Of a stretch of 52,843 bases of DNA, positions 1 to 52,266 are shown one piece after another; position 1 is the stretch's first letter, and each line of letters starts with the position of its first letter. Under the pieces are notes generated by a model. The model worked only from the letters and a program-made list of their open reading frames with translations, did not search any database and was not told where the DNA came from. Origin of the DNA: a virus (Duplodnaviria > Caudoviricetes); the IMG/VR virus record IMGVR_UViG_3300045789_000414, positions 1 to 52,843 of that record; one strand, given 5' to 3'. A program made the translations under genes and the position numbers.

Positions 1-69
1 CATACTCCCTATCAATAACACAGTTTTCTACATTCTCAGCAAACCATGTAATTTTGTGTGTGCAATCAC
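1..69. repeat. Terminal direct repeat (copy 1), identical to 52775-52843; circular assembly overlap
   Basis: Exact 69-bp identity CATACTCCCT...TGCAATCAC at both ends; an ORF reads through the junction. Confidence 0.95.
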
Positions 70-116
70 AATGCTTGTTAACTCTTAAGTGTTCCATCAA
101 TCTCTCCTGTTCGTTC

Positions 117-141
117 ACGCCTAACAAGGCTCATTAGATCG
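117..141 (+). other. attC remnant (R'' box and start of left arm)
   Basis: ACGCCTAAC-AAGGCTCA; ACGCCTAAC is the exact reverse complement of GTTAGGCGT at 52547-52555. Confidence 0.6.
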
Positions 142-372
142 GTATAGCCTATTTCCATCTAATATCCCGAATGGCATTTGACCGCCTGCTAAAAAACCTT
201 TTATAAGCATTACATCGTTTTCATTGATATGCAAAAAAGGCATACTGCTATTTTTAAACCTATTACTGCCCGTCTCTTCGCTAAGCCAGTCTATAAGCGG
301 CTGAAGTTCGTATCTACATATTTCGCAATGGTTACTATCATTACTTTCTATGTTGCAAATGTAGCAGTCCAT
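121..372 (-). CDS. Hypothetical protein with N-terminal CxxC...CxxC
   Basis: 83-aa ORF co-oriented with neighbours. Confidence 0.6.
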   Translation of the reverse strand: MDCYICNIESNDSNHCEICRYELQPLIDWLSEETGSNRFKNSSMPFLHINENDVMLIKGFLAGGQMPFGILDGNRLYRSNEPC

Positions 373-435
373 AAATAACCTTATAATTAATAACTAGATA
401 ATAACATATTTCAACAAAAGAGAAACATTTATTTA

Positions 436-783
436 CTATTTATTTTCCCACCATTGATTGTCACTGCTTATCATCTGATTCTCCCTGCTGTGCCAAGGGT
501 AATGAATGCCGGACTGCTTAATCATGTGAAGTTCAAATACTTGGTAAGCTTCTTGTATTTCTACTGTTGTTAGCTGTGAACTTGTCTTTCCGTACATGGC
601 TTTTGTTACTTCATCGAATAATAGCTTCATGTTTTCTTTTGTCCACAAGACTTTAAATCCGCGCTTATGAGCCTTTTCTATGAATACGTGGTAATCGAAT
701 CCGGCCTCATTTAACTCATTAGCGTAGCCGTCCAGTGTTGAGTGTAGGCTTTTATTCTGAAGCCTCGTTCTTTTCTCGCTCAT
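436..783 (-). CDS. NinB-like recombination accessory protein
   Basis: N-terminal RTRLQNKSLH and ...TSSQLTTVEI resemble NinB motifs. Confidence 0.55.
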   Translation of the reverse strand: MSEKRTRLQNKSLHSTLDGYANELNEAGFDYHVFIEKAHKRGFKVLWTKENMKLLFDEVTKAMYGKTSSQLTTVEIQEAYQVFELHMIKQSGIHYPWHSRENQMISSDNQWWENK

Positions 784-940
784 CGCCTATTTCTCAACCT
801 AGCTGCATTTTTACGCAAACGCTTTTGATCTGCTTTATTAACTCGCTGCTCATCATGCTTCCAGCCGCAGCTTGGTTTTTTAATCCCGACGTTAGTATCT
901 GAAAACATAGAAAATAAGCTCATTAGTAGTGTTTTTTTCT

Positions 941-1231
941 TCATTTCTTAGACCTAACCTTCATTAATAAATTAATCGCCTTGCGTAGCTTCTCATCACC
1001 TGTTCTATCTAGGTGAGCCTGTATCTCTTCGCGTGGATGCTTAAGCCATTTTTTAGCCTCTTTATCACGCTTTATACATTCAAGCTGATGCGCTCGCATC
1101 TCGTCTTTCTCTTGCTGGCTAAGTTGTGCAAAGCTCACGATAACCTCGCATGCTCTGGACAATACCAATTCTCTGACCCTTTTAAACTTCCTGTAACGCT
1201 CCCAGCCTTGTGACAATGATTCACAGCACAC
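941..1231 (-). CDS. Hypothetical protein (true start probably downstream, near 1138)
   Basis: ORF in the leftward operon overlapping the upstream gene. Confidence 0.5.
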   Translation of the reverse strand: MCCESLSQGWERYRKFKRVRELVLSRACEVIVSFAQLSQQEKDEMRAHQLECIKRDKEAKKWLKHPREEIQAHLDRTGDEKLRKAINLLMKVRSKK

Positions 1232-1689
1232 GTAGCCTCACTTCCTCTGTTTGGCGACCTTATCAGCCCTTTGCGCTTGTCCTGCGCTATTAACTGGTGA
1301 TGTCTTTCAAGAAGAATATCGTGGTCAGTAGCATTTTCGCCTAGTTGAGCCTTTGCCAGTTCTTCGATAACGTCAATAGCATGTGTCGGAGGTGGTAATG
1401 CTGCTTGCTTTTCAGCTTCTAGCCTTTCTGCGTTTTCTTTTTGTGCTTTTTTCCTATCACTATGAAGCTCCTTAAGGACATCGAGTATGTGCGATGGTGA
1501 TGGCTGCGACTTATACTTAGTAGTGTAAACGCCGAAAGCGTATTTTATTTCAGCTAAATCGAAACCTCTAAGCATCCTCCACCAAGCGCGTTTCTCTTCT
1601 TTATCGGGAAGGTCATCTTTTTTGACTTTAAGTAGTTTGAAGCTAGTATCTATTAATTCTTGAAATTCTGTTGAGTCGTTATCATTCAT
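1135..1689 (-). CDS. Putative replication protein (helicase loader/inhibitor, lambda P/G39P-like)
   Basis: WWRMLRGFDLAEIKYAF...PSPSHI pattern; downstream of the replication-initiator-like gene. Confidence 0.5.
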   Translation of the reverse strand: MNDNDSTEFQELIDTSFKLLKVKKDDLPDKEEKRAWWRMLRGFDLAEIKYAFGVYTTKYKSQPSPSHILDVLKELHSDRKKAQKENAERLEAEKQAALPPPTHAIDVIEELAKAQLGENATDHDILLERHHQLIAQDKRKGLIRSPNRGSEATCAVNHCHKAGSVTGSLKGSENWYCPEHARLS

Positions 1690-2413
1690 TGCTTTCCCCT
1701 ATCCTATTTCTAGCAATTTCAAAATATTCGCTGGATAACTCAATCCCGATAAATTTGCGGTTTAGGTTTTTGCAGGCTACACCTGTAGTTCCACTGCCCA
1801 TGAAAGGGTCTAGAACAACCTCTCCTACCAAACTAGAGTTACTAACATATAGCTCCATAAGCTCTATAGGTTTCTGTGTTGGGTGTTGTTTACCTCTAAT
1901 GTTGTCAAACTTATGACAGGTTTTACTGCCGCTATCAGTAATCGCCTTTGCTTTTCCTTTTCTAGCGAAAATTGTGTACTCCACATTCTTCATGTACCAA
2001 CGATTAGGTGTAGCAGTATTCTTCTCCCACACCAATAGATTATGTATCTCAAACCCTGCTGACCTAAGCTCCTTCATTAGCTTCTCAAGGTTCTTAAAGT
2101 TGACCATAAAATAAGCATGGCTTTCAGGTTTTAAAACTCTAAAACATTCAGGAAGCCAATCTGAGAAATTTGGTATAGTTTTCATCAACTGCTTGTTATC
2201 AGTTAGTATTCCTTTTGGCGAACCAACCCCTTTATTGCCTCCAGTTATGACATCATAAGGTGGGTCAGTTAATATCATCGAAATTGAATTGTCAGGAATA
2301 AACTTCATTGCATTTAAGCAGTCATCATTTATTAATGTATTTGGTTCAATCTCAAACCCTTCTGTTAAATCATCTTTATTTAATATAATCATCTTTGCTC
2401 TCTGTATCATCAT
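1682..2413 (-). CDS. Site-specific DNA methyltransferase, N6/N4 family (beta class)
   Basis: DPPY catalytic motif, HPTQKP, DPFMGSGTT SAM-binding motif. Confidence 0.92.
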   Translation of the reverse strand: MMIQRAKMIILNKDDLTEGFEIEPNTLINDDCLNAMKFIPDNSISMILTDPPYDVITGGNKGVGSPKGILTDNKQLMKTIPNFSDWLPECFRVLKPESHAYFMVNFKNLEKLMKELRSAGFEIHNLLVWEKNTATPNRWYMKNVEYTIFARKGKAKAITDSGSKTCHKFDNIRGKQHPTQKPIELMELYVSNSSLVGEVVLDPFMGSGTTGVACKNLNRKFIGIELSSEYFEIARNRIGESNE

Positions 2414-2768
2414 CAGTTAAAACCTCACTAACTGTAATTTCAGGCTTCATATCGAAACAACTAGGTTCGTTTAACTCATCGGCTGTTGCGTGTTGTGACA
2501 CTGTGTTTTCTGCGAAGTGCTCTAACTTCTCACCGCTCCTGCAAATAAGCTCAATATCATTAAAGGGTTTATTACGTGGATTAGCGCCCATCGACCAAGC
2601 ATCTTGACGGCATCCGTTAATAGCATCTTTTATATCGTCTATCTCATAACCTTCTTTCAATCTGTCTTTAATAGCCTTGCTTCGCTTAGGTGTTAGCTTG
2701 CATTTATTAGGGTTTTTGTCCATCGCCACAACCCAGTAATTGAATATGTATTGTATATCGTCTTTCAT
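2376..2768 (-). CDS. Phage replication initiator/replisome-organiser-like protein (likely start MKDDIQ at 2768)
   Basis: IFNYW...LTPKR..AIK.RLKEGY..DDIKDAI.GC..D.W motif typical of phage replication proteins; GGAG RBS before ATG 2768. Confidence 0.55.
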   Translation of the reverse strand: MKDDIQYIFNYWVVAMDKNPNKCKLTPKRSKAIKDRLKEGYEIDDIKDAINGCRQDAWSMGANPRNKPFNDIELICRSGEKLEHFAENTVSQHATADELNEPSCFDMKPEITVSEVLTDDDTESKDDYIK

Positions 2769-2890
2769 ATTAACTCCGTTAGTCAATCCGTATAAAAAAG
2801 CTGCGGCGTTGAGTACGGTTCTCAATGTTCGGTAATTATCCTAGCCGCAACTTAAAGTCTTGTTTATTCCGCTTATTGCTGCTGTTAGCT
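2768..2890 (+). other. Degenerate long attC-like site
   Basis: TATTAAC...TAGTCAATCCGTATAAA...TTTATTCCGCTTATTGCTGCT-GTTAGCT; right arm intact, left arm decayed. Confidence 0.55.
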
Positions 2891-3163
2891 GTCTTGAACT
2901 ACCCAGTTATTCTTTTCCATTGCGCTAGCTGCACAACCATGAAAAACGCCTCTCTGAAATTGTGCAATGTCTTGCGCTTTATACGCTCGATCACATACAT
3001 TGCAATCATCGTCATGGTATTTATTCAGCATTGTCATAAGCTCTTTTTCAGCATCTTCTAAATGATCTATGTATTTATACATAATCTGAATCTGATTTTT
3101 CATTGACTCAATTTCATATTCTTGCGAGTCTGTTTTATTTTCTAAGTTTTCAACATATTCCAT
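2885..3163 (-). CDS. Hypothetical coiled-coil protein carried in an attC cassette (2885-3252)
   Basis: 92-aa ORF; stop inside GTTAGCTGT, which matches ACAGCTAAC at 3199-3207. Confidence 0.7.
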   Translation of the reverse strand: MEYVENLENKTDSQEYEIESMKNQIQIMYKYIDHLEDAEKELMTMLNKYHDDDCNVCDRAYKAQDIAQFQRGVFHGCAASAMEKNNWVVQDS

Positions 3164-3200
3164 AGCATTTTTCCCATCTGGTGAAATTGGTTAATCAAAC

Positions 3201-3258
3201 AGCTAACAAAGCGCTCAATCGGACTGCGCAAGCTTGCAGCTTAGCGCAAAGGTTATGT
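3201..3258 (+). other. attC site (58 bp)
   Basis: AGCTAAC-AAAGCGCTCAATCGGACTGC...GCAGCTTAGCGCAAAG-GTTATGT; R''/R' boxes; L'' GCGCT(C)AA pairs with L' TTAGCGC leaving an extra base. Confidence 0.85.
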
Positions 3259-4008
3259 TGCACTAATTCTATCTTGTGCAATCTTAAAGTATTCTTCTAC
3301 CTTCTCAATTCCAACAAAATCCCTATTATTTATCTTTGCCATCTTTCCTGTAGTACCGCTTCCCATAAATGGGTCGAAGACTGTATCACCTTCGTTGCTC
3401 CAGCTTATAATATGATCGTGTGCTAGTTTTTCAGGGAAAATTGCTGGGTGGCCTGTCCCATTGCCACCTGTGCCATATCGCCATACATTTGATCGCCTAC
3501 TGTATTCGCCTGTAGTCAAGTATTTATCGCTTTTTACGTTTGCACCTTTGTTAATTACCTTATCTTTACGCTTTCTTGCCCCTGCTGTTTTGTTCTTGTG
3601 GTCTACAATAAAATTTAATGCTTTCGGCTTTCCTTTACTGAAAACAAACATATATTCAACTACATTGTAGTAACGGTCTTGCGTGGGTATTCTTGAGGCT
3701 TTCTCAAAGAACATCGTGTCATGCAAATTAAACCCACACTCCTTCGCCCATAACGCTTGACTGAATGACGTACCTGTCTCACTGCCTTTAATTGTTGCGT
3801 CACCAACCACCCAAACAACAACGCCACCTTGCTTTGTCACCCTATGTAGCTCTTTGATGACCACTTTCCAAACGTGCTCCCCCCACTGCTCATTGTTGCC
3901 GTTGTAGCTTCTGAGATTATCGTAAGGTGGCGAGGTTACTGTTAAATCAATACAGCCATCGTCCATTTCTGCCATAGCTTTCAGACAGTCATCGTTTATT
4001 AATTTCAA
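3253..4008 (-). CDS. Site-specific DNA methyltransferase, N4-cytosine/N6 family, in attC cassette (3253-4086)
   Basis: TSPPY, HPAIFP, DPFMGSGTT motifs. Confidence 0.92.
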   Translation of the reverse strand: MKLINDDCLKAMAEMDDGCIDLTVTSPPYDNLRSYNGNNEQWGEHVWKVVIKELHRVTKQGGVVVWVVGDATIKGSETGTSFSQALWAKECGFNLHDTMFFEKASRIPTQDRYYNVVEYMFVFSKGKPKALNFIVDHKNKTAGARKRKDKVINKGANVKSDKYLTTGEYSRRSNVWRYGTGGNGTGHPAIFPEKLAHDHIISWSNEGDTVFDPFMGSGTTGKMAKINNRDFVGIEKVEEYFKIAQDRISAT

Positions 4009-4036
4009 TTTATTCTCCTAGTTTTGTGAAGGCGCA

Positions 4037-4092
4037 ACATAACAAAGCAAGTCAGTCGGACGCTTTCAGCGCCGCTGCTCGCAAGGTTATTT
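4037..4092 (+). other. attC site (56 bp)
   Basis: ACATAAC-AAAGCAAGTCAGTCGGACGC-TTTCA-GCGCCGCTGCTCGCAAG-GTTATTT. Confidence 0.85.
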
Positions 4093-4281
4093 ATCTACAG
4101 GCAACATATCCCTACAAGTAACCTTGCCACTTGTAGCGTCCTCAATTCGTATGGCTAAGCATAGCCCAGCATTACGATTACCGCTTAAGATATTGCTGAG
4201 GTAGCTTGGCAATATCCCAATCTTTTTTGCAAAGTCTTTCTTAAGAATTTTGTTCTCTTTTAAATATTTTTCTAATGTCAT
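4087..4281 (-). CDS. Cro-like XRE helix-turn-helix regulator
   Basis: MTLEKYLK...FAKKIGI.PSYLSNILSG.R...LAIRIEDATSGKVT. Confidence 0.85.
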   Translation of the reverse strand: MTLEKYLKENKILKKDFAKKIGILPSYLSNILSGNRNAGLCLAIRIEDATSGKVTCRDMLPVDK

Positions 4282-4475
4282 TTCTATTTCTCTTTTTTAT
4301 TAAATTCATCACCACCAAATAAAAGCCAGCACCTATCACATAAGCCATCATGGTTAGCACTTGCGTCACGTTCACCGCACTCTTCACATACTGGGCCTTT
4401 AAGGGCTACTATAAGTAATATTGCTAAGAATATTAGTAAGTAATACATGTATTTTCTCCTGCTTTTAATTCATTG

Positions 4476-4500
4476 TTCCGCTTATTACTGCTGTTATACG
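4476..4500 (+). other. attC right-arm remnant (L'-R')
   Basis: TTCCGCTTATTACTGCT-GTTATACG, near-identical to 2867-2890. Confidence 0.6.
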
Positions 4501-4766
4501 CCAAGCCTTTCGAATACGTGGAATACCAATCCGTTGTGCATAAAACCTGTCCCCGTATATCTGAACTTAAATCCAATCTGTCTTGGTATCTCATGACCAG
4601 TTCCAAACGCGTAAAACGACCTAGTTCGTAACTGATTATTTGTATTTACTCTTGCCCATAAGCAAAGGCTTCCCCCTTTGAATGCGGCAGTGAGTACTTC
4701 TGCTAGCGCTGGCATGTTAATCTCTGGGTTACTTGGGTCTATAATATATTTATGTATAGTATCCAT
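4494..4766 (-). CDS. Conserved phage hypothetical protein in a decayed cassette
   Basis: TIHKY...LCLWA.V...GTGH...VFHVFE pattern common in phages; flanked by GTTATACG and CGTGTAAC (4786-4793). Confidence 0.75.
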   Translation of the reverse strand: MDTIHKYIIDPSNPEINMPALAEVLTAAFKGGSLCLWARVNTNNQLRTRSFYAFGTGHEIPRQIGFKFRYTGTGFMHNGLVFHVFERLGV

Positions 4767-4923
4767 CTTGCTTCTCCGCTTAATTCGTGTAACAAGTCAC
4801 CCAAATTGAGTGTTAATTCATAACTTAACGATACTTTAACCGATGATTAAACATTATGCAAGAGGTAAATGTAATAAATGTAAAAAAAGACCCAGCCAAA
4901 GAACCTTCACTTGAAACGTGGGG

Positions 4924-4952
4924 TTGACAATGACCGAGCCTTATTTTATACT
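4924..4952 (+). promoter_or_regulatory. Sigma70-type promoter
   Basis: TTGACA-17bp-TATACT. Confidence 0.75.
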
Positions 4953-5413
4953 GCCATCTAATCAGCGAGTTAGTAGCTCCTGATTAGTTAGTTGAAGGAC
5001 ACCAACTCCTAGCAACTAATTGAATATATTTTAATTCAATTCATCTTAAAAAGCAAACGTTGGTTTTTAGTCTCGGTGGAAGTGACGGTCGGCTGAAGTA
5101 AAAACGTGATAGACGGGTGTATTTAATCACAACGCTAAGAGTGACTTTAGTAGAGCGGGTATATTGGATTAATCCTTGCCTTAACTCAGATTAAAGGGCG
5201 TATCGGGCGTAATACTGAGCTGTTCACAGCGATACAAAGCGATACCAGTTAAGGAAGTGTCCTTGCCTTAGCCTGAATGATACCGATGCTGATTCGCGTT
5301 AGGTTGATTTTTAGAAGCTCATCTTTACTCATACTTTAATGGGTAAGGGTGAGTATTGCCTGAATTCCTCCTCGCCTCAAACGCTTAGGTTAATAACATA
5401 AGGAATAAGAACA

Positions 5414-5842
5414 ATGACAATGACTGGTAAAGAGTATCTTGCAAAGCACGATAAAAAAGTAAAGTCTAAACTAAGGGCTAAGCGAAGAAAGGCAAAGAAG
5501 AAAAAACAAAATTTTTCTATAGGCTCTTTTGAACAAAATCAAATAAATTCTTCAGCAAGTAAAATGAGGCGGTATTCACATAAAGACTTAAAGAAAAAGA
5601 ATTATAGCGCCTTTTACAGGTCAGACGAATGGCTAAGAATCAGGTATCTGGCATTAAAGAATACTGACGGAAGATGCTGCTGTTGTGGAATATCTGCTAA
5701 AGATGGAGCAATACTAAACGTTGACCATATTAAGCCGCGATCAAGATACCCTGAGTTAGAACTAGACCTTGATAATATGCAAATACTATGCCAGTTTTGT
5801 AACACAGGGAAGGGCGCTTGGGACTGTACCGACTGGCGTTAG
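5414..5842 (+). CDS. HNH endonuclease with basic N-terminal extension
   Basis: FYRSDEW..R...CCCCG...LNVDHIKP...DNMQILCQFCN.GKG. Confidence 0.9.
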   Translation: MTMTGKEYLAKHDKKVKSKLRAKRRKAKKKKQNFSIGSFEQNQINSSASKMRRYSHKDLKKKNYSAFYRSDEWLRIRYLALKNTDGRCCCCGISAKDGAILNVDHIKPRSRYPELELDLDNMQILCQFCNTGKGAWDCTDWR

Positions 5843-5922
5843 TAAATGATTGCTATTGCCTAAAATAATAGACAGCATAAAGAACTTTTCTAAATTAATT
5901 TACATTTATTTATCAATTGGTA

Positions 5923-5950
5923 TTGACAGTACGGTTATTCGTGCTAATAT
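5923..5950 (+). promoter_or_regulatory. Sigma70-type promoter
   Basis: TTGACA-16bp-TAATAT with extended -10 TG. Confidence 0.55.
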
Positions 5951-5982
5951 GAACTTACACAAACGGTAAAGGAATAAATAAA

Positions 5983-6618
5983 ATGATTGATTTAACAAAG
6001 TTTAAACTTGAAGAACTTCAGAAAAAAATTAAAAAGACTGTTGATGGTAAGGATGTGGAAATCTATACAGTACATAAAGACCAAAAGTACCCTATATTTG
6101 GCGCCTTTCTAATTGATGACGAATGGGTGCAGAATGATTGGAAGAGAAACGGTGAGTATATGGACTGCCCCGAAGACAATAGAAATAACCTAAACCTATC
6201 AGCCTTCACGACGGAAATAGACTATAACCAATTACCAGTTGATACGCTTATAGAAGTTGAGGGCATAGGCAAAAGATATACAGCAGGGATGACTCCATGT
6301 CATGGCGATCTAGTCTTTTTTTTCAGTGACGGGAGGGACAGTAATACAGAAATAGAATATACACGCGCCGAAAAAGAAACATGCAAGCTAATAACCAACC
6401 CTAGGAAAGGATGGTTTGGCGGCGAAATCGGTATTCCTGATGGGGTTAAATTGAGAGTATGGGAGGCTGAGATATTGTTTGGCGTATTATATTCTAATAC
6501 CCGCATCAAAATAATGGATGAGGATTTACGCAAAGGATTTAACAAATCAAGTGGGCATACAGGAATAACCAGCTATCAAATACTAGGTGAAGATTATCAA
6601 GAAGGAGATGAATTATGA
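5983..6618 (+). CDS. Hypothetical protein
   Basis: 211-aa ORF with AAGGA RBS. Confidence 0.75.
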   Translation: MIDLTKFKLEELQKKIKKTVDGKDVEIYTVHKDQKYPIFGAFLIDDEWVQNDWKRNGEYMDCPEDNRNNLNLSAFTTEIDYNQLPVDTLIEVEGIGKRYTAGMTPCHGDLVFFFSDGRDSNTEIEYTRAEKETCKLITNPRKGWFGGEIGIPDGVKLRVWEAEILFGVLYSNTRIKIMDEDLRKGFNKSSGHTGITSYQILGEDYQEGDEL

Positions 6619-6748
6619 TTGACCAAAGAAGAAACTGTGAAGAACGCGATAGACGAGAAAACCGCAAACTAAGAAACTCAATGATTGCTTTTTATTCAAT
6701 CCTTGGCGTTAGTATATTGGCTTTAACTCACACGATTTACGCAGCGCT

Positions 6749-7168
6749 ATGAATACATTTACTCAATCATTAGCAATCAATATCGGTAACTCAAGAACCG
6801 ATGCTAGTTTTGATTGCTATGTTTATCTCGATAGCTTCTGTGAAGATTTTAAAATGAATATTGGGGTTACGGTTAAGCTTGAGGTTGAGATGATTTTATA
6901 CGCTGATTCATCGCAGTACGAGACAAGCGACATTGAAATCAAAGAGGTTCGCTTAATCTTTGCTAACGACCAGCATGTTGACCTTACTTATGATGACTAT
7001 CAGTATAGGTCTATTGACTGCGATGAAATAAAAGAATACATATTATCTGAAGCAAGCACTGAAATAACTAAGGCATGGGCTGACGAAATTGAGGCCCAAG
7101 CAGAAGATGATGGAGACTACCGATATGAACTTCAAAAGCAGGAATTCTTGGATGAGGAAATGTTATGA
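6749..7168 (+). CDS. Acidic hypothetical protein
   Basis: 139-aa ORF in coupled operon; start uncertain. Confidence 0.65.
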   Translation: MNTFTQSLAINIGNSRTDASFDCYVYLDSFCEDFKMNIGVTVKLEVEMILYADSSQYETSDIEIKEVRLIFANDQHVDLTYDDYQYRSIDCDEIKEYILSEASTEITKAWADEIEAQAEDDGDYRYELQKQEFLDEEML

Positions 7169-7410
7169 ATAAAACAATAGAAATTTTAATTGACGAGCAG
7201 TACGGTGAAGAGATTTATGAGCTTACTTACTCGGTTAAAGGTGATGCCAGCGATGCTATAGAGACTCAAGCAATACAGATCATCATGTTAAAGGATAGCC
7301 AAGGCCACGATATAACAAGCGATGTTTCCAATCCGTTTTTAGAAGATGATGAATTTAGACGTGTTTGCATAGAGAAAGCCCTAGAATATGAAGAAGGTGA
7401 AATATTATGA
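7165..7410 (+). CDS. Acidic hypothetical protein
   Basis: ATGA overlaps on both sides. Confidence 0.7.
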   Translation: MNKTIEILIDEQYGEEIYELTYSVKGDASDAIETQAIQIIMLKDSQGHDITSDVSNPFLEDDEFRRVCIEKALEYEEGEIL

Positions 7411-8492
7411 GCAGGAATATTGCAGAATATATCGAAGATACCAAGGAAAGGTTTAACGAGATAGCACCTAACGGTATAAAGTATTCTTCTGAAAAAGGAT
7501 TCGCCATACAGTTATTAAAAGCTAATGAATATCTAATGGGCGTTGCAATAAAAAACCCGCAGTCATTACAGCAAGCAATAACAAACGTGGCTGCTATTGG
7601 TCTTTCTTTAAACCCTGCTGAGAAACTTGCTTACCTAATCCCTCGAAATGTTAAGGTCGGGAAGAGCTGGGAAAGTCGCGTCTATCTTGAGCCTTCTTAT
7701 ATGGGTTTAATAAGACTAGCAACTAACTCAGGCGGGATTGCTTGGATTCAGGCCGCCGTTGTTAAGCAGAATGACTCCTTTAAGGACGTAGGTATGGGGC
7801 AAGCGCCACTACATGAATATGAGGCTTTCGGTGATCGCGGTGATGTGGTTGGAGTATATGCTGTGGCCAAGACAAAAGACGGTGATTATCTAACAGAAAT
7901 AATGACGTTAGAAGAGGTCCATAAAATAAGGGATAGATCAGAAAGTTATAAAAAATACCAATCTGGCACTTGGGTAACTGACTTTATAGAAATGGCTAAG
8001 AAGGCCGTCATAAGACGATTATTCAAAACCCTACCATTGACCGATGAGAACGCAAGAATGGCTCATGCCATCGACCTGTCGAACGCTAACGCGGATATAG
8101 AGCAGATTGCTACATCGCCAAATGTCGGCAGCATATCAGTAGAACAAAAAAAGTTCTTTGATGAACTGATTGAAAAAGGTGACGCTTTCGGCATGACTGT
8201 CTTAATGAAGGGGCTTGATGAAAGAGAGTTTTCAAACTTGTATCATTCTTTCGAAAAAGGCACCAAGGGGAAGTATCAGAAGATAGTTGATGATCTAACA
8301 AAACGCGGCTCTAGCATCTTGGCTGATTATGTAACACAGTTCTCTGATATGTTAGAAGCTAACGACACTGACGGCGCTGGTGAGTTATTGGATGGAATGA
8401 ATAAAGAAGAGATTAACGTTATCTTGGATTCTTGCTCAACTGAGTGCTGTGCTTTTATTAATGAAGTTATTGAAAATGGTAGCGAGCTATGA
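7407..8492 (+). CDS. recT: RecT-family single-strand annealing recombinase
   Basis: AAIGLSLNP...AYLIP, SYMGLI.LA, W.TDF.EMAKKAVIRRLFKTLP. Confidence 0.88.
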   Translation: MSRNIAEYIEDTKERFNEIAPNGIKYSSEKGFAIQLLKANEYLMGVAIKNPQSLQQAITNVAAIGLSLNPAEKLAYLIPRNVKVGKSWESRVYLEPSYMGLIRLATNSGGIAWIQAAVVKQNDSFKDVGMGQAPLHEYEAFGDRGDVVGVYAVAKTKDGDYLTEIMTLEEVHKIRDRSESYKKYQSGTWVTDFIEMAKKAVIRRLFKTLPLTDENARMAHAIDLSNANADIEQIATSPNVGSISVEQKKFFDELIEKGDAFGMTVLMKGLDEREFSNLYHSFEKGTKGKYQKIVDDLTKRGSSILADYVTQFSDMLEANDTDGAGELLDGMNKEEINVILDSCSTECCAFINEVIENGSEL

Positions 8493-8887
8493 AAGAGAAT
8501 GAATGTCAATGGTGCGGAGGCCCCAAAACAATTAGAGAAGATGAAAGACCCTGTATATTTAGGATAAGGAAAACGTGTAGTCGTGAATGCAGAACTGCTT
8601 TAACAAATCACACAATGGCTAAGAAGAGAGCAGCCAATAAAATTGTAAAAAGAGTTGATATAAAGCCGCGAAGATGCCCAGAATGTGATAAACTATTTAG
8701 CATAAGAAAAAACGAAAGGGCCGATAGTTTTAAAAAATTGAAACGGTGCCCAGCTTGCACCGAAGAAAGAAACTCTACCAAGCCGTATAAATTGGAAGAA
8801 GTTCTATCAGTTTTAAAGAAGCGAGATAGGATGATGCAAATTGCAGTGCTTAGCCCGAAGATTGGGTTAATGCAATACATGAAATAA
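8489..8887 (+). CDS. Cys-rich zinc-finger protein
   Basis: CxxC...CSRxC and CxxC...CxxC repeats. Confidence 0.7.
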   Translation: MKENECQWCGGPKTIREDERPCIFRIRKTCSRECRTALTNHTMAKKRAANKIVKRVDIKPRRCPECDKLFSIRKNERADSFKKLKRCPACTEERNSTKPYKLEEVLSVLKKRDRMMQIAVLSPKIGLMQYMK

Positions 8888-8956
8888 CGCCGCTATAAGC
8901 GGTTGAAAATGAGGAGGAACGACGAATGAACAATCCGATTGATAGCCTTGTTATAT
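8882..8956 (-). other. attC site (75 bp)
   Basis: Minus strand ATATAAC-AAGGCTATCAATCGGATTG...CAACCGCTTATAGCGGC-GTTATTT. Confidence 0.85.
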
Positions 8957-9213
8957 GCAATGCCAATATAGAGCAGGGCTGGCGGTTTAGTACCGCAGAC
9001 TTTTCTTGTATTGCTAATGGTAGAAACAAGGCGGGAATAGTGCTCTTTATTAGAGAGCCAAGCGAAGTTGATAGGTGGCACATGCAGCCCGATGAGCTAA
9101 AAGAATCAGATGATTGCCCGCCTCTCTATGTTGTCGGGGAGGGAATGACTTTTGAAGAAGCGATTATAAATGCAAATTTGGCGGCAGCTCATGCGAAGCC
9201 GATAAGCATATAA
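8926..9213 (+). CDS. Hypothetical protein in attC cassette (8888-9213); RBS and start lie inside the attC
   Basis: GAGGAGG-N8-ATG within the attC loop; stop in GCATATAAC. Confidence 0.65.
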   Translation: MNNPIDSLVICNANIEQGWRFSTADFSCIANGRNKAGIVLFIREPSEVDRWHMQPDELKESDDCPPLYVVGEGMTFEEAIINANLAAAHAKPISI

Positions 9214-9265
9214 CACCCGCATAACCAGCGCATCTTTTAGCGTCCGGTTCATGCGATGGTTAGAA
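9208..9265 (-). other. attC site (58 bp)
   Basis: Minus strand TTCTAAC-CATCGCATGAACCGGACGC...GCGCTGGTTATGCGGGT-GTTATAT; close homologue of 52211-52266. Confidence 0.85.
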
Positions 9266-9292
9266 CAAATTTTAATTAGAAAAGGAAATAAA

Positions 9293-9619
9293 ATGACAAA
9301 TAAAATAGGTGTAAGCCTCAAAATTGATGTAAGCAAGATTGACAAAACAAGATTGTTTGAAGGCACCAAGGGAACTTATTTAGACGCAACTGTTTTTATT
9401 GATATTAACAATGAAGATCAGTACGGCAATAACGGATTTATAGCTCAATCAGTTAGCAAAGAAGAGCGGAAACAAGGCGTTAAGGGCGCGATACTAGGTA
9501 ACGTTAAGGTCTTTTATAAAGACAATAGCGAGTCTCAACAAGGCGGTAATTTTAGCGATGCTCCTAAGCAGCCTTCAGGCGCGATGGATGATTTTGATGA
9601 TGATATAATACCGTTTTAA
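9293..9619 (+). CDS. Phage single-stranded DNA-binding-like protein
   Basis: KIDVSKIDK..LF.G.KGTYLD...DQYGN.GFI.Q...ILGN; acidic tail DDFDDDIIPF; AAGGA RBS before ATG 9293. Confidence 0.75.
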   Translation: MTNKIGVSLKIDVSKIDKTRLFEGTKGTYLDATVFIDINNEDQYGNNGFIAQSVSKEERKQGVKGAILGNVKVFYKDNSESQQGGNFSDAPKQPSGAMDDFDDDIIPF

Positions 9620-9648
9620 TTGACTCCATTCTAATTAGTGCGTACAAT
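9620..9648 (+). promoter_or_regulatory. Sigma70-type promoter for the downstream HNH-like gene
   Basis: TTGACT-17bp-TACAAT. Confidence 0.55.
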
Positions 9649-9677
9649 ATAAGTACACATAGAATGGAGGTTAAGCA

Positions 9678-10163
9678 ATGTTTGAAAAGAAATGCTTTAA
9701 ATGCGGAGAGACTAAGCAACTCTCCGATTTCTACAGGCACAGTAAAATGAAAGATGGTCATGTTAATAAGTGTAAGGAGTGTAACAAGTCTGACGTTAGC
9801 GCAAATTACCGTAAGAATATTGACCATTATAAGGCTTACGAGAAAAGCAGGGCTAACTTGCCTCACAGAGTTAAAGCTAGGAAGGATTACTCTAATTCAG
9901 AGGCTGGACTTGAAGCTGGTAAAATAGCTAGAAAAGCTTGGGTAGAAAGAAACGCCATAAAAAAAGGCGCTTCGACGATGGTTCGTAATGCTGTACGTAA
10001 CGGGAAATTAATTAGACCTAGTCATTGTTCAGATTGTGAATGCGAGCATAATAGATTACACGGGCACCACGATGATTATTCAAAGCCTTTAGATGTAAGA
10101 TGGCTTTGCCCAACTTGCCATAAGCAGTGGCATAAAATAAACGGTGCCGGATTGAATGGTTAA
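9678..10163 (+). CDS. Phage HNH-like zinc-finger endonuclease
   Basis: CFKCGETK.L.DFY...CKEC; C..C...HGHHDDYSKPLDVRWLC..CH. Confidence 0.8.
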   Translation: MFEKKCFKCGETKQLSDFYRHSKMKDGHVNKCKECNKSDVSANYRKNIDHYKAYEKSRANLPHRVKARKDYSNSEAGLEAGKIARKAWVERNAIKKGASTMVRNAVRNGKLIRPSHCSDCECEHNRLHGHHDDYSKPLDVRWLCPTCHKQWHKINGAGLNG

Positions 10164-10265
10164 TTTTAATCTTAGGTGAGTACATTCTGATACTACAACT
10201 CGTATATAGTCCTGCTGCCTTCAGGCTTAACGCCGTTCCTGAAGTACAGCTCTATATAGGATTAG

Positions 10266-10472
10266 ATGATTTTTATGACTAATTGGATTGATTCAGAAGA
10301 TGAAGTAAAACCCGTTGTAGCTAGAACGGTGTTGGCATATTGCCCTGACTGGAACAATAGCGGGTATCAAGTGTGTTACTGGGATGGGAAGGTTTTTAGG
10401 TACGAAGAGCAACCTAATGACGACTTCCATACCTATGTGAACTCATGGGCGATATTTATGGAAGCCGATTAA
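10266..10472 (+). CDS. DUF551-like small phage protein
   Basis: NWI.....P.....VL..........V..W pattern. Confidence 0.55.
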   Translation: MIFMTNWIDSEDEVKPVVARTVLAYCPDWNNSGYQVCYWDGKVFRYEEQPNDDFHTYVNSWAIFMEAD

Positions 10473-10475
10473 GGC

Positions 10476-10548
10476 ATATAACCAAAGTGTAGCTGGCGTG
10501 AATGAAGCGCCAGCGTAATGAACGTCCACGCTGACATAGTTGTTAGTG
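10476..10548 (-). other. attC site (73 bp)
   Basis: Minus strand CACTAAC-AACTATGTCAGCGTGGACG...CGCCAGCTACACTTTG-GTTATAT. Confidence 0.75.
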
Positions 10549-10560
10549 TGTAGGAGTTAG

Positions 10561-10899
10561 ATGATGGAAAGAGCGTTAATTGTAAGGCAGCCGTGGCTTG
10601 ATTTAATTTTGTCAGGTGAGAAAACTTGGGAAATGCGCAGTAAGCCTACAAAGGTGCGTGGGCGAATTGGGTTAATAGAGCAAGGCACTGGCCTAATTGT
10701 TGGTGAGTGCGAGCTGGTTAATTCTGGCGAGTCGATAAACAATTTTAATCTTGGTTACGGCCAGCATTTACACAAAGTGAATGATTTTGATTTGTTGGAA
10801 AAATGGCATTACCCGTGGGTATTAAGTAACGCGGTGCGGTATGAAGTGCCAATTAAATACAAACACCCGCGTGGAGCCGTAACGTGGGTGAGAATATAA
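10561..10899 (+). CDS. ASCH domain protein in attC cassette (10482-10899)
   Basis: ALIVRQPWLDLILSGEKTWEMRS (GxKxxExR) motif. Confidence 0.9.
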   Translation: MMERALIVRQPWLDLILSGEKTWEMRSKPTKVRGRIGLIEQGTGLIVGECELVNSGESINNFNLGYGQHLHKVNDFDLLEKWHYPWVLSNAVRYEVPIKYKHPRGAVTWVRI

Positions 10900-10949
10900 C
10901 GCCTAAAGAAGCCGCGCATCTATGCGTCGGCTTGCTTTACTTGTTAGCA
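10894..10949 (-). other. attC site (56 bp)
   Basis: Minus strand TGCTAAC-AAGTAAAGCAAGCCGACGCA-TAGA-TGCGCGGCTTCTTTAGGC-GTTATAT. Confidence 0.85.
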
Positions 10950-10953
10950 CTTT

Positions 10954-11253
10954 TTACGATGCCAAAGCACGAAGAACAGCACCAGGCTCTTTGGCGACAA
11001 CATTTAGCAAAACCAATGCCGGTCCATGAGGAGTACGGTCACCTCGCTCCCAGTGACGGAGCGTGCTCACACTGATACCAAACGCAGATGCGAATTCATT
11101 TTGAGACATGCCGACCTTTGCCCGAATATTTTTTACGTCCACTGGGCCAAACTCGTGAACGATGGCTTTTTTAACTTTACCCTCAGAAAACTCAATTGCC
11201 TCGGATAAGCCCTGTTTGATACTTGAGAAAGCGCTAGCCATTTGAACCACCAT
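10954..11253 (-). CDS. higA: HigA-type XRE-HTH antitoxin (NadS-like; probable start MASAF at 11241)
   Basis: DVKNIRAKVGMSQNEFA..FGISVSTLRHWERG.R.P.GPA..LL; downstream of toxin. Confidence 0.85.
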   Translation of the reverse strand: MVVQMASAFSSIKQGLSEAIEFSEGKVKKAIVHEFGPVDVKNIRAKVGMSQNEFASAFGISVSTLRHWERGDRTPHGPALVLLNVVAKEPGAVLRALAS

Positions 11254-11575
11254 AGTGCTTGAGTAAAAGTTGAGTTAATTTAGCAAGTTCATTGCGTTCA
11301 GCTTTGTTGATGTTAGCCTTTTCGCCCTTGCCAAAAACCGTTAAAAGAAAGAGTGGAATCTCGCCATTGTGATAGTAGTAAATCACTCTTACTCCACCAC
11401 TTTTCCCCCTTCCTTGAGCAGACCATCGAAGCTTCCTGATACCCCCAGTACCCTGCATAAGATCACTGGACTGAGGATGAGATGCTAAGTAATTGATAAT
11501 GCTCGCCTTTTCATCAGGCTTTAGTAGGCCTTCGGCGCGTTTCTGGAATTCAGGGAGCTCTACAATTGTCTGCAT
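11234..11575 (-). CDS. higB: RelE/HigB-2-type toxin
   Basis: GTGGIRKLRW...GKSGGVRVIYY...LLTVF.K.EKAN; toxin-first operon. Confidence 0.88.
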   Translation of the reverse strand: MQTIVELPEFQKRAEGLLKPDEKASIINYLASHPQSSDLMQGTGGIRKLRWSAQGRGKSGGVRVIYYYHNGEIPLFLLTVFGKGEKANINKAERNELAKLTQLLLKHYGGSNG

Positions 11576-11582
11576 AGGCCCA

Positions 11583-11612
11583 AGTGTAATCCATTGGATT
11601 ATAGTTCGTCAA
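11583..11612 (-). promoter_or_regulatory. TA promoter with palindromic operator
   Basis: TTGACG-18bp-TACACT on the minus strand overlapping TAATCCA-T-TGGATTA (11587-11601). Confidence 0.7.
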
Positions 11613-11627
11613 TGCATGGACTTGTAG

Positions 11628-11684
11628 TGCTAACAGTCACATAACAGGAAGCGTTTTTACTTCCTGTTCATGTGGCGGTTATGT
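11628..11684 (-). other. attC site (57 bp)
   Basis: Minus strand ACATAAC-CGCCACATGAACAGGAAG...CTTCCTGTTATGTGACT-GTTAGCA. Confidence 0.85.
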
Positions 11685-11939
11685 GAAGGCTTAATGAAAG
11701 GAGAGAGTATATGGCCATAGATAAATATATTGAAAAAAAACATAAATAATGCCTAATAAATCAGCTTGCATGATGTTAGCTAAAGTTAACGGAATAAACA
11801 CAAATAAACCAGTAAGATCATGTAAAATATAGCTTTAAGAACCTATCTTAGGACGGTTAGATGAGAACATGGAAAACAAAGTGCCTCGAAGAAGCAGGGA
11901 TATTAATAGCTGTTATTGATAAGCTAAGGGGTCTTAAGA

Positions 11940-12542
11940 GTGAGTAATCAAGCAGGGTCAGATAACAGTAAGCCCGAGTTAAAGAAGCTAACTGAGAGAG
12001 AAGAGTCCTTATGCCAAGCAATGTTAGTTAGCGATAACCAGTCTGAAGCATTCCGTAAGTCTAAGTATGCAACTGATAAAATGAGTCAGGCAACTATAAC
12101 TAAGCAGGCCAGCAGGTATTTCCAGAAACCCCATATTAGGGGGAGGATGGCTATTCTTACCCAAAAGCGTAACGAGAGATCAAAAATAGACGCTGATTAT
12201 GTTATAAAAAGACTGGCGGAAATAGATCAAATGGATGTCAAAGATATACTTGATGATGAAGGTGGATTGCTACCTGTCAATGAATGGCCTAAACAGTGGC
12301 GTATCACTGTTAGTGGTATAGAGGTGTCAAAGCTGAAAGTAGGGCAAGATGGCTCCGCTATACTTTCTAAGATTAAGTGGCCTGACAAAGTAAAGAACTT
12401 GGAGCTTATAGGCAAACATGTTGACGTCCAAGCATGGAGGGAAAAGATTGATGTCACCGTTGTGGACGAAGAAGATATATTGCAGAAGCGAATAAATAAA
12501 GTCGAAGAGCTGAAGAAATCGGCTCAACAAGCATCTGACTGA
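11940..12542 (+). CDS. terS: Terminase small subunit
   Basis: IDADYV..RL.EID.MD..DI...KIKWPDKVKNLEL.GKHVDVQA; directly upstream of TerL. Confidence 0.88.
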   Translation: MSNQAGSDNSKPELKKLTEREESLCQAMLVSDNQSEAFRKSKYATDKMSQATITKQASRYFQKPHIRGRMAILTQKRNERSKIDADYVIKRLAEIDQMDVKDILDDEGGLLPVNEWPKQWRITVSGIEVSKLKVGQDGSAILSKIKWPDKVKNLELIGKHVDVQAWREKIDVTVVDEEDILQKRINKVEELKKSAQQASD

Positions 12543-30873: not shown

Positions 30874-31913
30874 TGGGTTTATTATCAGGGTTCGCTAAAG
30901 GCGCTTCAGAAGGAATACAAGGCGGCTGGGAAGATAATCGACAGGAAGCGATGGAGCAGGCTAGGCAGCAAATGAAGATGCGCTTGCAAGATAGAGCGGT
31001 ATCACTCAACATTGAAGAAGATGCCCGTATTCGTGAGCAAGAATTAGCGGATAGAAACGACCCTAATAGTGTTTTTAATATCGACCGAAGAAACGAGTTG
31101 GCGGATAAAAAAGCACTACTATCTATGAAAGGAACAGCTACTAAAGCGCCTTCATGGAAGTCAGTTAAAGTGCCGTTACCTGACGGCGGAGAGGGCGAGG
31201 TATTGTACGACCCAGATTCAGGTCAATACCGTGACCCATCAGGCATTATGAACAAACCATCTATATCTGAATCAGAGGCAATGGCCGAGGCTGAAATGAT
31301 GGCTTCTGATAAAGCCAAGCTCCTTAATTCAGATGCAGAGGACTTTGGTATGGATAGAGACCTATGGATAAAAACCGAGGCCGAGCGCATTATGAGTGAG
31401 TCAACTTTGGCGTATCAGCTAGGCATTAATTCAGCTCCGGCGTCAAACGGTGGCTCAGCCCCAACAGTTAGGCTAAGCCGAGACAACAAAGAACAAGCGC
31501 CAAATAAACCTCAAACGTCACCTGTCAAACCTGCCAACGATAGTGCAAAACAAGAGGAAGATGCTCTATTGGCTGAGTTCGGGCTTAATGTTCAAAGTAA
31601 TGATAATAGTGGCGGCTTACTTGGCGCATTAAAAGACGACCCTGTGACAGGCACAGCTATTAACGCAGTTGGCAAAGCAAAGGACGCAGCAAACAAATTT
31701 GGTTCGTTTGTGTCAAAAACTGCTAATTCAGCAATGGACGCTATTAATACGCCGCCGAACATATCGCCTGAGTATAGAAAAAAATTAGAGTTAACTCTTA
31801 ACGAGTTCAGGAAATCGCCAACCGTGCAGGCAGCTCAAGAAATATTGCATAGCGGGTTAGTGACCGGAAGAGAGAAAAAGGCGATCGAGATATTCATCGA
31901 GAGAAATAAATAA
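30873..31913 (+). CDS. Internal virion/ejection protein
   Basis: MGLLSGFAKG start, helical region. Confidence 0.6.
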   Translation: MGLLSGFAKGASEGIQGGWEDNRQEAMEQARQQMKMRLQDRAVSLNIEEDARIREQELADRNDPNSVFNIDRRNELADKKALLSMKGTATKAPSWKSVKVPLPDGGEGEVLYDPDSGQYRDPSGIMNKPSISESEAMAEAEMMASDKAKLLNSDAEDFGMDRDLWIKTEAERIMSESTLAYQLGINSAPASNGGSAPTVRLSRDNKEQAPNKPQTSPVKPANDSAKQEEDALLAEFGLNVQSNDNSGGLLGALKDDPVTGTAINAVGKAKDAANKFGSFVSKTANSAMDAINTPPNISPEYRKKLELTLNEFRKSPTVQAAQEILHSGLVTGREKKAIEIFIERNK

Positions 31914-50833: not shown

Positions 50834-50867
50834 AATATTAACCTTTATTTTGACATCCTCCCCACGG

Positions 50868-51962
50868 CTAAATCCGGGGGATTCCTACTGCTAGACGCTC
50901 ATGCCCGAGCGCGAGAATGTTCTTTGCCGCATTAATATCTCTATCATGCGTCGTCCCACAGTCAGGACAAGACCATTCTCTTATTCCAAGTCCTGCTCTA
51001 CCTTTCGGACTGTTGGCGGAAATACTCCCGCAACACGAACAAGCTTGGGTACTGTACGCTTCGTTGACTTCTATAAACACGCCTTGCGTCGCTATCGACT
51101 TATATTCAAGTTGTGTTTTCAGCATTGCCCAGCCTGCATCCAAAACGGATTTCGCCATCCTGGTTTTTGCAAGACCGGACGCGCTGACGTTGCCAACGAC
51201 AATCAAACTGTTTTCTTTAACTAATTTGTTACTGAATTTATGGATCGCATCCTTGCGTCGGTTCTTAATCTTGGCTTGAATTGCCCTAACGCGCTTTTTA
51301 TCCTTAGCCCGTTGCGCTTTACCCAGCTTAACTTCACTATTACGGTAGCAATCCTGGCGTTCCAAAGTATCACCATTAGAACAAGTGGCAGTTGTCTTTA
51401 AACCAAGGTCAATGCCTATTTGACCGCCTTCTGCTTGCCTTATTTCAGCTTCAACATGAACAACAATATTGAAATACCATCTACCGCGTGAGTCCTGGCT
51501 AAAACAACCGGAGCGAAAATCAAACTGACTCAATCCATAACTATCCCATACTTTAAAGTAGTGACCAGCATAGCGGATTTGTCCATTAACCCATTTAGCA
51601 GCACCGGACTTAAAAGGAACCCAGCCTAATGCGCGTCTTGCTCCACCAGAACACCTCCAATTGAGCTTGTTTTTCTTAAACTGTTTTCTGGCTTTAGCAT
51701 GAACAGCAATAACTTCTTGAGCTGCCGTTGAGTCGATTATCATGCCGCGTTCTTTGCGGATGCCTTTTAAGTCTTTCATTAAATCAAATGCTGATGTACC
51801 GCAATTAATATAACCCACTTCTGGCACTGGAACCCAAGAATACTCAGAGGAATCCGCGTTAGCAGCGTTCCAAACCTGATTCACATCAAAAGCCATACGA
51901 TTCAATACACTAGCGTGTTTATCGCGAACTCTGACTGATAATGTTTTAACTATTGGTTTCAT
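50868..51962 (-). CDS. tnpB: TnpB RNA-guided endonuclease
   Basis: GIDLGLK (RuvC-I), CSCC...CPDC zinc finger, HDRDINAAKNI (RuvC-III). Confidence 0.95.
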   Translation of the reverse strand: MKPIVKTLSVRVRDKHASVLNRMAFDVNQVWNAANADSSEYSWVPVPEVGYINCGTSAFDLMKDLKGIRKERGMIIDSTAAQEVIAVHAKARKQFKKNKLNWRCSGGARRALGWVPFKSGAAKWVNGQIRYAGHYFKVWDSYGLSQFDFRSGCFSQDSRGRWYFNIVVHVEAEIRQAEGGQIGIDLGLKTTATCSNGDTLERQDCYRNSEVKLGKAQRAKDKKRVRAIQAKIKNRRKDAIHKFSNKLVKENSLIVVGNVSASGLAKTRMAKSVLDAGWAMLKTQLEYKSIATQGVFIEVNEAYSTQACSCCGSISANSPKGRAGLGIREWSCPDCGTTHDRDINAAKNILALGHERLAVGIPRI

Positions 51963-52008
51963 AGGTTATAATTGTACATTACTTTAATTAAATTGTACAT
52001 CAAATTTT

Positions 52009-52149: not shown

Positions 52150-52210
52150 ATCAAAAAGCACGCTTACATCCCCACCTGAAGGAAGGGGAATTACGCTCCG
52201 TTCGGTTAAA

Positions 52211-52266
52211 TTATAACTAGCGCATAAACCGGACGCAAAAGAGCGCCGGTTATGCGGGTGTTAGCT
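52211..52266 (+). other. attC site (56 bp)
   Basis: TTATAAC-TAGCGCATAAACCGGACGC-AAAAGA-GCGCCGGTTATGCGGGT-GTTAGCT. Confidence 0.85.

Follow-up and report, generated by a model that had tools for sequence, protein, structure and literature searches.

Integrons are seen as belonging to bacteria. By definition, an integron cassette is a promoterless gene with an attC recombination site behind it, and where cassettes come from is still debated. What, then, are we to make of a phage genome in which integron-type attC sites point one way and the genes that adjoin them point the other? The viral contig IMGVR_UViG_3300045789_000414 (Caudoviricetes) raises this question; all 52,843 nucleotides of it were analyzed here and are called the window below. 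An original prediction, made from the letters of this DNA, held that the cassette genes of the window are systematically antisense to their attC sites, with the TAA stop codon inside the R' core site, and that they form a distinct class of inverted, phage-adapted cassettes. Our data clearly indicate that nine sites of the window are integron-type attC sites, that their strand is opposite to that of the adjoining genes, and that the cassettes they delimit are exchanged in nature at G|TTA boundaries among near-identical phages. Bases 1-70 are repeated at 52774-52843, and, given these direct terminal repeats and an IMG/VR rating of 100% complete, the window is one complete circular phage of ~52.8 kb.

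A crucial requirement for reading the orientation of such sites is a model of attC whose own strand is known. Rfam at gathering scores gave no match over the whole window. A motif common to two left-arm sites led to 27 stretches in bacterial genome contigs, mostly from Gammaproteobacteria, and these yielded 16 full bacterial sites with a common R'' GCCTAAC, a spacer, a bulged L box, and an R' GTTA. The covariance model that we term R1 was built from these 16 bacterial attC sites only. Three of five of the bacterial genomes encode a true integron integrase (the intI gene; TIGR02249, 418-436 bits against a cut-off of 265), and the intI beside one R1 control array scores 420 bits over TIGR02249. 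In the Allopseudospirillum array beside intI, all nine distinct R1 matches point away from intI, as do three of the four R1 matches of at least 17 bits in the Thiococcus array. Of 46 sites in the bacterial control loci, 32 have both neighboring genes in the direction of the attC and one has both in the opposite direction, in keeping with the premise of the original prediction that most bacterial cassettes carry their gene in the sense of the attC. Because the control sites point away from intI and the bacterial genes run with the site, the R1 top strand is the canonical attC top strand.

Run unfiltered on the window, R1 finds seven sites (14.0-26.7 bits, E values of 2e-4 to 0.5 in 175 kb). R1 was too narrow, overlooking sites in the related contig L003 that are evident by eye, and for this reason a broader covariance model, R2, was built from 46 R1 matches, bacterial and viral. 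R2 adds a site at 52432-52553 on the + strand (24.8 bits), places 11628-11684 on the - strand, and finds no site at E<0.05 between 12 and 49 kb. All nine sites begin ..TAAC and end GTTA..., with the inverted core sites R'' RYYYAAC and R' GTTRRRY. Constrained folds of the sites starting at 4037, 9208, 10894, and 52211 have spacers of 2-3 nt and bulges that are mostly or wholly confined to one arm (4 versus 1, 1 versus 3, 0 versus 2, and 2 versus 0 between the two arms, respectively); folding is less clean at the remaining sites. The closest attC sequences come from gammaproteobacterial arrays located next to intI. Three further candidates of the structural scan (5010-5069, 37221-37295, and 36094-36163) lie in coding or AT-rich DNA, have no model match, and were rejected as chance.

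The nine sites are confined to two divergently transcribed accessory arms: leftward genes extend from ~4766 over the circle junction as far as ~43.7 kb, and rightward genes begin at 5414. In the left arm the attC sites read on the + strand and the genes on the - strand, in the right arm the reverse, and the gene strands beside the sites are backed by Pfam and PHROG matches. Three independent lines of evidence agree on the attC strand. Eight sites score 14-27 bits (R1) or 25-44 bits (R2) on the assigned strand and at most ~15 on the other. A bulge scanner, given only the AAC...GTT pattern and folding energy, assigns the extra bases at 4037 and 52211 to the 5' arm of the + strand and those at 9208 and 10894 to its 3' arm, in agreement with the model at all four callable window sites; on a control array it returned the expected strand at five of six sites and was undecided at one. 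The third line is linkage in the relatives L001-L003, which are IMG/VR contigs with a backbone 97-99% identical to the window: attC 52211 and its left flank are retained in L002 and L003, with varying DNA to the right of its GTTA, and attC 9208 and its right flank are retained, with varying DNA on the left. This linkage to the R''-side flank supports the assigned polarity, since the reverse polarity predicts the opposite.

Could the strand nonetheless have been misassigned, the true recombining strand of these near-palindromic sites being the other one and the cassettes ordinary? The RYYYAAC...GTTRRRY pattern of attC does read on both strands, and 11628-11684 switched strand between R1 and R2, but the one-strand scores of the eight sites, bulges that fall on the matching side, and a flank linkage that fits the assigned strand only render this extremely unlikely. 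Both flanking genes run against the attC at six of eight window sites, as opposed to the single bacterial control site noted above. In a conventional cassette the open reading frame (ORF) is encoded on the top strand of attC and is followed by the attC; in the window, eight of the nine sites have an antisense ORF on their R' side, the HigBA toxin-antitoxin cassette being the exception. The original prediction that attC sites and genes lie on opposite strands in both arms, to be judged by the strand of the covariance model, was thus borne out, and the same-strand outcome that would have contradicted it was not obtained. Its claim that the arrangement is systematic calls for two qualifications: the HigBA cassette is canonical, and two of the stop codons that it listed lie outside any full attC.

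Those stop codons reveal how the antisense genes end. Seven of the nine that had been placed in the GTTA of R' (3253, 4087, 8887, 9213, 10899, 52261, and 52548) are indeed the TTA of R' in supported sites, each closing an antisense open frame of 69-254 codons; counted by site, seven of nine have an antisense open frame of 50 or more codons that terminates in R'. The other two, 2885 and 4494, sit at G|TTA junctions. That at 2885 is a cassette boundary, its GTTAGCT being 7/7 complementary to the R'' of attC 3201-3258, and the homology of L002 and L003 stops beside it, at 2895 and 2887, respectively. That at 4494 bounds a module encoding a DUF7352 protein, which is missing in L001 and L003, is replaced in L002, and is skipped by a joint from 4464 to 4813, with nine shared letters, in contigs of three of the four runs compared. 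The 21-mers at 2865-2884 and 4474-4493 (running through the next GTTA), directly left of G|TTA, are identical at 20 of 21 positions; both stretches resemble the L'-R' half of attC 8882-8956 and could be half-sites or attI-like simple sites.

The backbone genes that precede the arrays, a Cro-like helix-turn-helix (HTH) gene and a Zn-finger gene, both end AAA-TAA-C, as had been noted, and the junction, TAA|C, coincides with the stop of the gene before it. A TAA stop is followed by C at 10 of 16 TAA stops of the accessory arms and at 4 of 20 elsewhere (nominal Fisher p 0.016). In the 68-aa gene at 10266-10472, the TAA at 10470-10472 is followed 9 nt on by a second in-frame TAA, inside the R' of 10476-10548, as if the stop had moved.

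If the crossover is set at G|TT to define the cassette limits, the order in the right arm, followed leftward in top-strand sense, is attC 11628-11684, the HigBA cassette, a cassette encoding an ASCH-domain protein, a unit of three ORFs, a 95-aa ORF cassette, and the TAA|C of the Zn-finger gene. In the left arm, 2885-4086 comprises a 92-aa ORF cassette and a DNA methyltransferase cassette, and 52261-52547 comprises an 81-aa ORF cassette (Table 1). The R'' of a cassette's own attC is complementary, at 7/7 positions, to G plus the first six bases of the unit in five of the seven window cassettes and in 8 of 11 cassettes when those of the relatives are included; the in situ R' reaches 7/7 in none of the 11. 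Complementarity of R'' to the cassette start is a classical sign of G|TT recombination and is strand symmetric on its own. Cassette ORFs occupy the attC bottom strand in all but HigBA, and two of them start within their own attC (ATG 8926 in 8882-8956 and ATG 52506 in 52432-52553). The cargo is of phage type: an N6/N4 methylase, an ASCH protein, an endonuclease-like protein, and small PHROG families of unknown function. For the 95-aa ORF, only nine metagenomic homologues were found, without context. With five attC sites in 8882-11684, four in 52211-4092 over the circle junction, and no intI, the arms qualify as clusters of attC sites lacking an integrase (CALINs); a complete integron would have intI with an adjacent attI and promoter, and the window has no intI, attI, or cassette promoter (Pc).

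Table 1. Sites, genes, and modules of the window (scores in bits; "ends" gives the match of R'' to the start of the cassette)
Feature	Coordinates	Strand	Remarks
TnpB-type insertion (IS200/IS605-like)	50850-52204	-	1355 bp; PF07282, PF01385
attC	52211-52266	+	R' GTTAGCT, holding the stop of ORF 52261-52506; R1 25.5; R2 42.3 versus 13.3 on -; two bulged A in 5' half
81-aa cassette ORF	52261-52506	-	Antisense to attC; weak PHROG match; cassette 287 bp, ends 7/7
Long attC, 122 nt	52432-52553	+	R2 only, E ~5e-4; absent from R2 training; variable loop contains ribosome-binding site (RBS) and start of 81-aa ORF; R''-L'' half an exact motif match
Backbone ORF	52548-52841	-	Open at window end; TAA in hybrid R' GTTAGGC; 97 open codons
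Left junction of 2885-4086 array	2865-2890	+	G|TTAGCT, no attC to left
92-aa cassette ORF	2885-3163	-	Antisense to attC; stop is the cassette's first TTA; weak PHROG matches; cassette 368 bp
attC	3201-3258	+	R1 26.1; R2 35.3; longer 5' half; R' GTTATGT holds methylase stop
N6/N4 DNA methyltransferase	3253-4008	-	PF01555, E 9e-44; antisense to attC; single-gene cassette, 834 bp, ends 7/7
attC	4037-4092	+	R1 26.1; R2 43.8; three single-base bulges in 5' half; R' GTTATTT holds HTH gene stop
Cro-like HTH backbone gene	4087-4281	-	PF01381; end AAA-TAA-C
Variable module	4474-4821	-	DUF7352 ORF 4494-4766 (PF24043); G|TTATAC at 4493/4494
RecT gene	7407-8492		
Zn-finger backbone gene	8489-8887	+	End AAA-TAA-C; TAA in hybrid R' of 8882-8956; 134 open codons
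attC	8882-8956	-	R1 26.7; R2 43.4; loop holds RBS and ATG (8926) of 95-aa ORF
95-aa cassette ORF	8926-9213	+	326-bp cassette, antisense to attC, ends 7/7
attC	9208-9265	-	R1 20.9; R2 38.2; bulges in 3' half of +; R' holds 95-aa ORF stop
Three ORFs (9293-9619; 9678-10163, endonuclease-like; 10266-10472)	9293-10472	+	Between two attC sites; 1268-bp multi-gene "cassette"; ends 5/7 only; internal mosaic joint 9573 to 10185/10188
attC	10476-10548	-	R1 14.0; R2 28.2; absent from R2 training
ASCH-domain ORF	10561-10899	+	PF04266; antisense to attC; 112 open codons; stop in R' of 10894-10949; cassette 418 bp
attC of HigBA cassette	10894-10949	-	R1 21.4 versus 14.7 on +; R2 38.6; bulges in 3' half of +
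HigB/RelE-like toxin and XRE antitoxin	11234-11575; 10954-11253	-	PF06296, PF01381; cassette 734 bp, ends 7/7, runs against phage operon; promoter-like site 11612-11583 (-) beside it
attC, upstream end of right-arm array	11628-11684	-	R2 18.1 versus 13.2 on +; R1 weak, + 10.6; weaker strand call; single bulge in 3' half of +

A short, uncertain candidate for an attC-like remnant at ~4790-4821, with no model match, bounds the DUF7352 module. The TnpB element, separated by a few bases from the R'' of attC 52211-52266 and standing outside the cassette system, carries a divergent 46-aa ORF (52009-52149) behind two direct repeats; it is peculiar to the window, 50849 being joined to 52205 in L002 and L003. 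A single ORF of 3228 aa occupies 31913-41599 in the structural region.

Do the cassettes actually move? The window and L001-L003 differ at four variable places, all of them at G|TTA. The stretch from the Zn-finger stop to attC 9208 is occupied by the 95-aa cassette in the window, by ~1 kb of other cassettes in L003, by ~160 bp in L001, and by three different cassettes in L002, of which two are antisense to their attC and one is sense; attC 9208-9265 with its right flank is common to all three relatives, and other attC sites stand there in place of attC 8882-8956. Behind attC 52211 the window carries one cassette, L003 three small ones, and L002 none, with the homology of L003 resuming at 52546, beside ORF 52548-52841. 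The interval 2885-4086 is other DNA in L002 (562 bp) and L003 (256 bp), both of which lack the methyltransferase. Contigs of four other studies, one of them an RNA library possibly containing DNA, end or change at, among the examples listed, 3252, 8888/8890, 9208-9211, and 9265, and one contig joins 2865 to 4099 via 24 other letters with another TAAC stop. In gene sense, each site moves together with the gene that follows it. The segment 9201-9600, which holds attC 9208-9265 and the gene behind it, has, in contigs of two studies, a summed depth of 2210 (X2) and 209 (X8), against tens nearby, and this suggests that the site and the gene that follows it are a widely shared module.

A rival reading of the exchange among relatives dispenses with an integron integrase. 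The hairpins might instead be phage intergenic repeats at which homologous recombination, through RecT, swaps modules: the genome has a RecT gene and no intI, and conserved hairpins at fixed places could act as short homologies. We consider this account very unlikely, as the sites score as attC with the bacteria-only model R1, the boundaries of exchange fall at G|TT, and each module has its own, different hairpin with an R'' that matches its own start at 7/7, a feature not expected from homologous exchange.

The back-to-front arrangement is also seen in viral contigs unrelated to the window and, in part, in Pseudoalteromonas phage H101. Our sample consisted of 28 non-redundant R2 sites from nine other viral contigs and H101, after removal of duplicates (L067, equal to L102; L004, equal to L055; L035 and L039, equal to L030), of a lower-scoring opposite-strand match in L091, and of sites orthologous to window sites (L001 306; L002 4292 and 12489; L003 3280 and 12493). 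Sixteen of these 28 viral sites have an antisense frame of 50 codons or more that stops exactly in R', and at 22 the antisense frame is longer than the sense frame; the corresponding numbers for 67 bacterial sites are 10 and 16, and at 47 of the 67 a sense ORF ends at R''. The difference in the longer frame (22/28 viral versus 16/67 bacterial) has a nominal p of 1.5e-6. L017, L038, L066, and L030 have gene runs ending in TAAC. In H101, four sites lie on the + strand and all 14 annotated coding sequences of 73.5-80 kb on the - strand. A BLAST comparison of ten other viral loci with the window found shared DNA in L004 alone (69 nt), and neither blastn of one window attC nor megablast of 1-12000 against phage records returned a match. 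Most of the 64 motif stretches found in viral contigs proved by folding to be chance matches in coding DNA, and those confirmed by the model were kept.

Some viral contigs do encode IntI. We found 73 such loci, and a search of 40 yielded 33 attC matches; of these, 26 are located upstream of intI and directed away from it. The proteins of ~39 viral contigs (L109-L147) are 36-52% identical, over nearly their full length, to bacterial integron integrases, and L112, L113, and L129 have attC sites downstream of intI in the same direction.

We think it probable that the window carries two integrase-less arrays of real integron-type cassettes, mirror images of bacterial ones, that are shuffled by an integrase in trans. 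Integron integrases recombine the folded bottom strand of attC, and in the window that strand is the coding strand of the phage genes. Read in gene sense, a cassette would consist of a C, the attC hairpin as a 5' leader (sometimes with the RBS and start codon), the ORF, and its TAA. The crossover at G|TT on the top strand would be AA|C in gene sense, directly after the TAA stop, so that the gain or loss of a cassette spares the preceding gene and each cassette brings its own stop. Exchange would be catalyzed by an integron integrase supplied by the host or by another phage. The first insertions may have occurred at TAAC stops that served as secondary, attG-like GTT sites, as the junctions and one divergent "empty" variant suggest. 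Since TAA followed by C is GTTA on the other strand, insertion after TAA would fix the attC antisense to the operon, and only cargo antisense to its attC would then be read from phage promoters, presumably by read-through. A rough estimate of 16 TAA x 0.2 (C) versus 8 TAG x ~0.07 (TT) suggests that stop-adjacent targets favor the antisense layout by ~5:1. Precedents exist for two of these steps: IntI inserts cassettes at GWT sites outside integrons, the motif-bearing strand setting the orientation (10.1101/2022.09.11.507474), and IntI1 recombines phage attC sites (PMC9892861).

The bottom strand is also the non-template strand and, if replication starts in the gap at 4.8-5.4 kb, would lie on the lagging-strand template, a position reported to favor attC folding and excision (PMC13108822). 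GC skew turns at ~4.8 kb and ~43 kb, together with gene direction, and for this reason replication and transcription are inseparable as causes of the flip in polarity. The ORF-free gap between the divergent arms spans ~570 nt (4830-5413) and contains a near-consensus promoter at 4924-4952; RNA of 4958-5400 folds somewhat better than shuffled sequences (z -2.4), and an E-value search of 4700-5500 against Rfam found no family. The promoter scan gave strong -35/-10 matches at 4924-4952 and 5923-5950, promoter and terminator scans overall were at chance level, and no attC was called a terminator on the gene strand, a weak negative that we do not count.

A broader proposition, that phages keep a mirror-image cassette pool, with bottom-strand genes, hairpin leaders, and core TAA stops, shuffled at TAA|C by host or phage integrases, we advance tentatively, at somewhat less than even chances. 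A different history would have the cassettes made in place: ordinary bacterial cassettes, or attC sites alone, were inserted at the TAAC stops of several phage genes, phage genes became bracketed between them, and the inserted cassettes' own cargo, antisense and silent, decayed, leaving no separately adapted class. The canonical, self-promoted HigBA cassette, the single "cassette" with three genes and poorly matching ends, the phage-type cargo, and the enrichment of TAAC stops in the accessory arms only all fit such a history. It accounts poorly for two ORFs that start inside their own attC (8926 and 52506), for compact single-ORF cassettes of 287-834 bp with ends matching at 7/7, and for the replacement of one another, in the relatives, by different small cassettes of the same build. 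We regard it as rather unlikely; being an account of origin and not of the present-day mechanism, it can be compatible with shuffling in trans.

Several observations weigh against the reading of mirror-image cassettes shuffled in trans. The enzyme is assumed: the complete phage genome has no TIGR02249 match anywhere, and a search for intI in five related or similar viral records found none. The phage has no close cultured relative, the large terminase having at most 47.8% identity to any phage record. R2 was partly trained on phage sites and is not independent for its training sites. The HigBA cassette has the canonical gene/attC orientation, two cassettes have poorly matching ends (4/7 and 5/7), one of them spanning three genes, and the stops at 2885 and 4494 lack a full attC on their left. 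The p-values given above are nominal only, as sites are clustered in arrays and contigs; the viral contigs were sampled by the motif of one attC subfamily, and ORF calls outside the window are length heuristics. H101 has unannotated + strand ORFs behind two of its sites. The layout is mixed at the 26 sites that point away from a viral intI, 12 of them having the longer frame in antisense and 13 in sense, in GC-rich contigs where the ORF heuristic is weak. For the distinct class of phage cassettes put forward in the original prediction, the phage-type cargo and the recurrence of the layout in unrelated viral contigs speak in favor, and the interpretation as a whole is partly supported.

How do these arrays compare with systems already described? 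In R''/R' core sites, bulged hairpin, G|TT crossover, and complementarity of cassette ends they are like canonical integron cassettes; in bacterial cassettes the ORF occupies the top strand and ends at or in R'', whereas here it occupies the bottom strand and ends in R', downstream of its attC. Phage attC sites, phage CALINs, methylase cargo, and recombination by IntI1 were reported by Qi et al. 2023 (PMC9892861), whose phage CALINs likewise have attC sites and cassettes without intI and N6_N4_Mtase cargo. Our models find four sites in H101, one of the phages of that study. The main text of Qi et al. 2023, its supplementary tables aside, calls the arrays typical of bacteria and makes no mention of antisense genes or R' stops; here the antisense layout is the rule, the two arrays have opposite polarity, and exchange is seen in relatives. 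The insertion of cassettes at attG sites and the single attC sites lacking an integrase (SALINs) described for bacterial chromosomes (10.1101/2022.09.11.507474) are similar in being IntI mediated, outside attI, and at a short GWT motif, TAA|C corresponding to G|TTA; the parts of that work drawn on here describe no stop-codon preference or antisense cargo.

A further comparison concerns the toxin-antitoxin cassettes of chromosomal integrons, which carry a self-promoted toxin-antitoxin pair whose orientation is independent of the array promoter. The HigBA pair is likewise self-promoted, but in the window the toxin-antitoxin cassette is the canonical one and the others are inverted. The literature searched contains no report of an antisense gene/attC layout in phages (the supplementary tables of Qi et al. 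2023, which may show the layout, were outside the scope of that search). Phage attC sites are known, and the antisense layout is new as far as the literature searched extends.

If this reading is true, with a methylase and other early genes as exchangeable units, phages shuffle their own genes by integron recombination, plausibly counter-defense genes among them, and, on the broader proposition, two cassette pools would share the machinery of recombination but not that of expression. A phage cassette in a bacterial integron would be antisense to its promoter, and a bacterial cassette in a phage operon would be silent unless it is self-promoted, as HigBA is. Standard integron annotation, which takes gene and attC to lie on one strand, may misread such arrays. 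TAAC stops may be harmless landing sites and hence may offer a route from an ordinary gene to a cassette. The existence of near-identical relatives with different cassette content makes the system directly testable.

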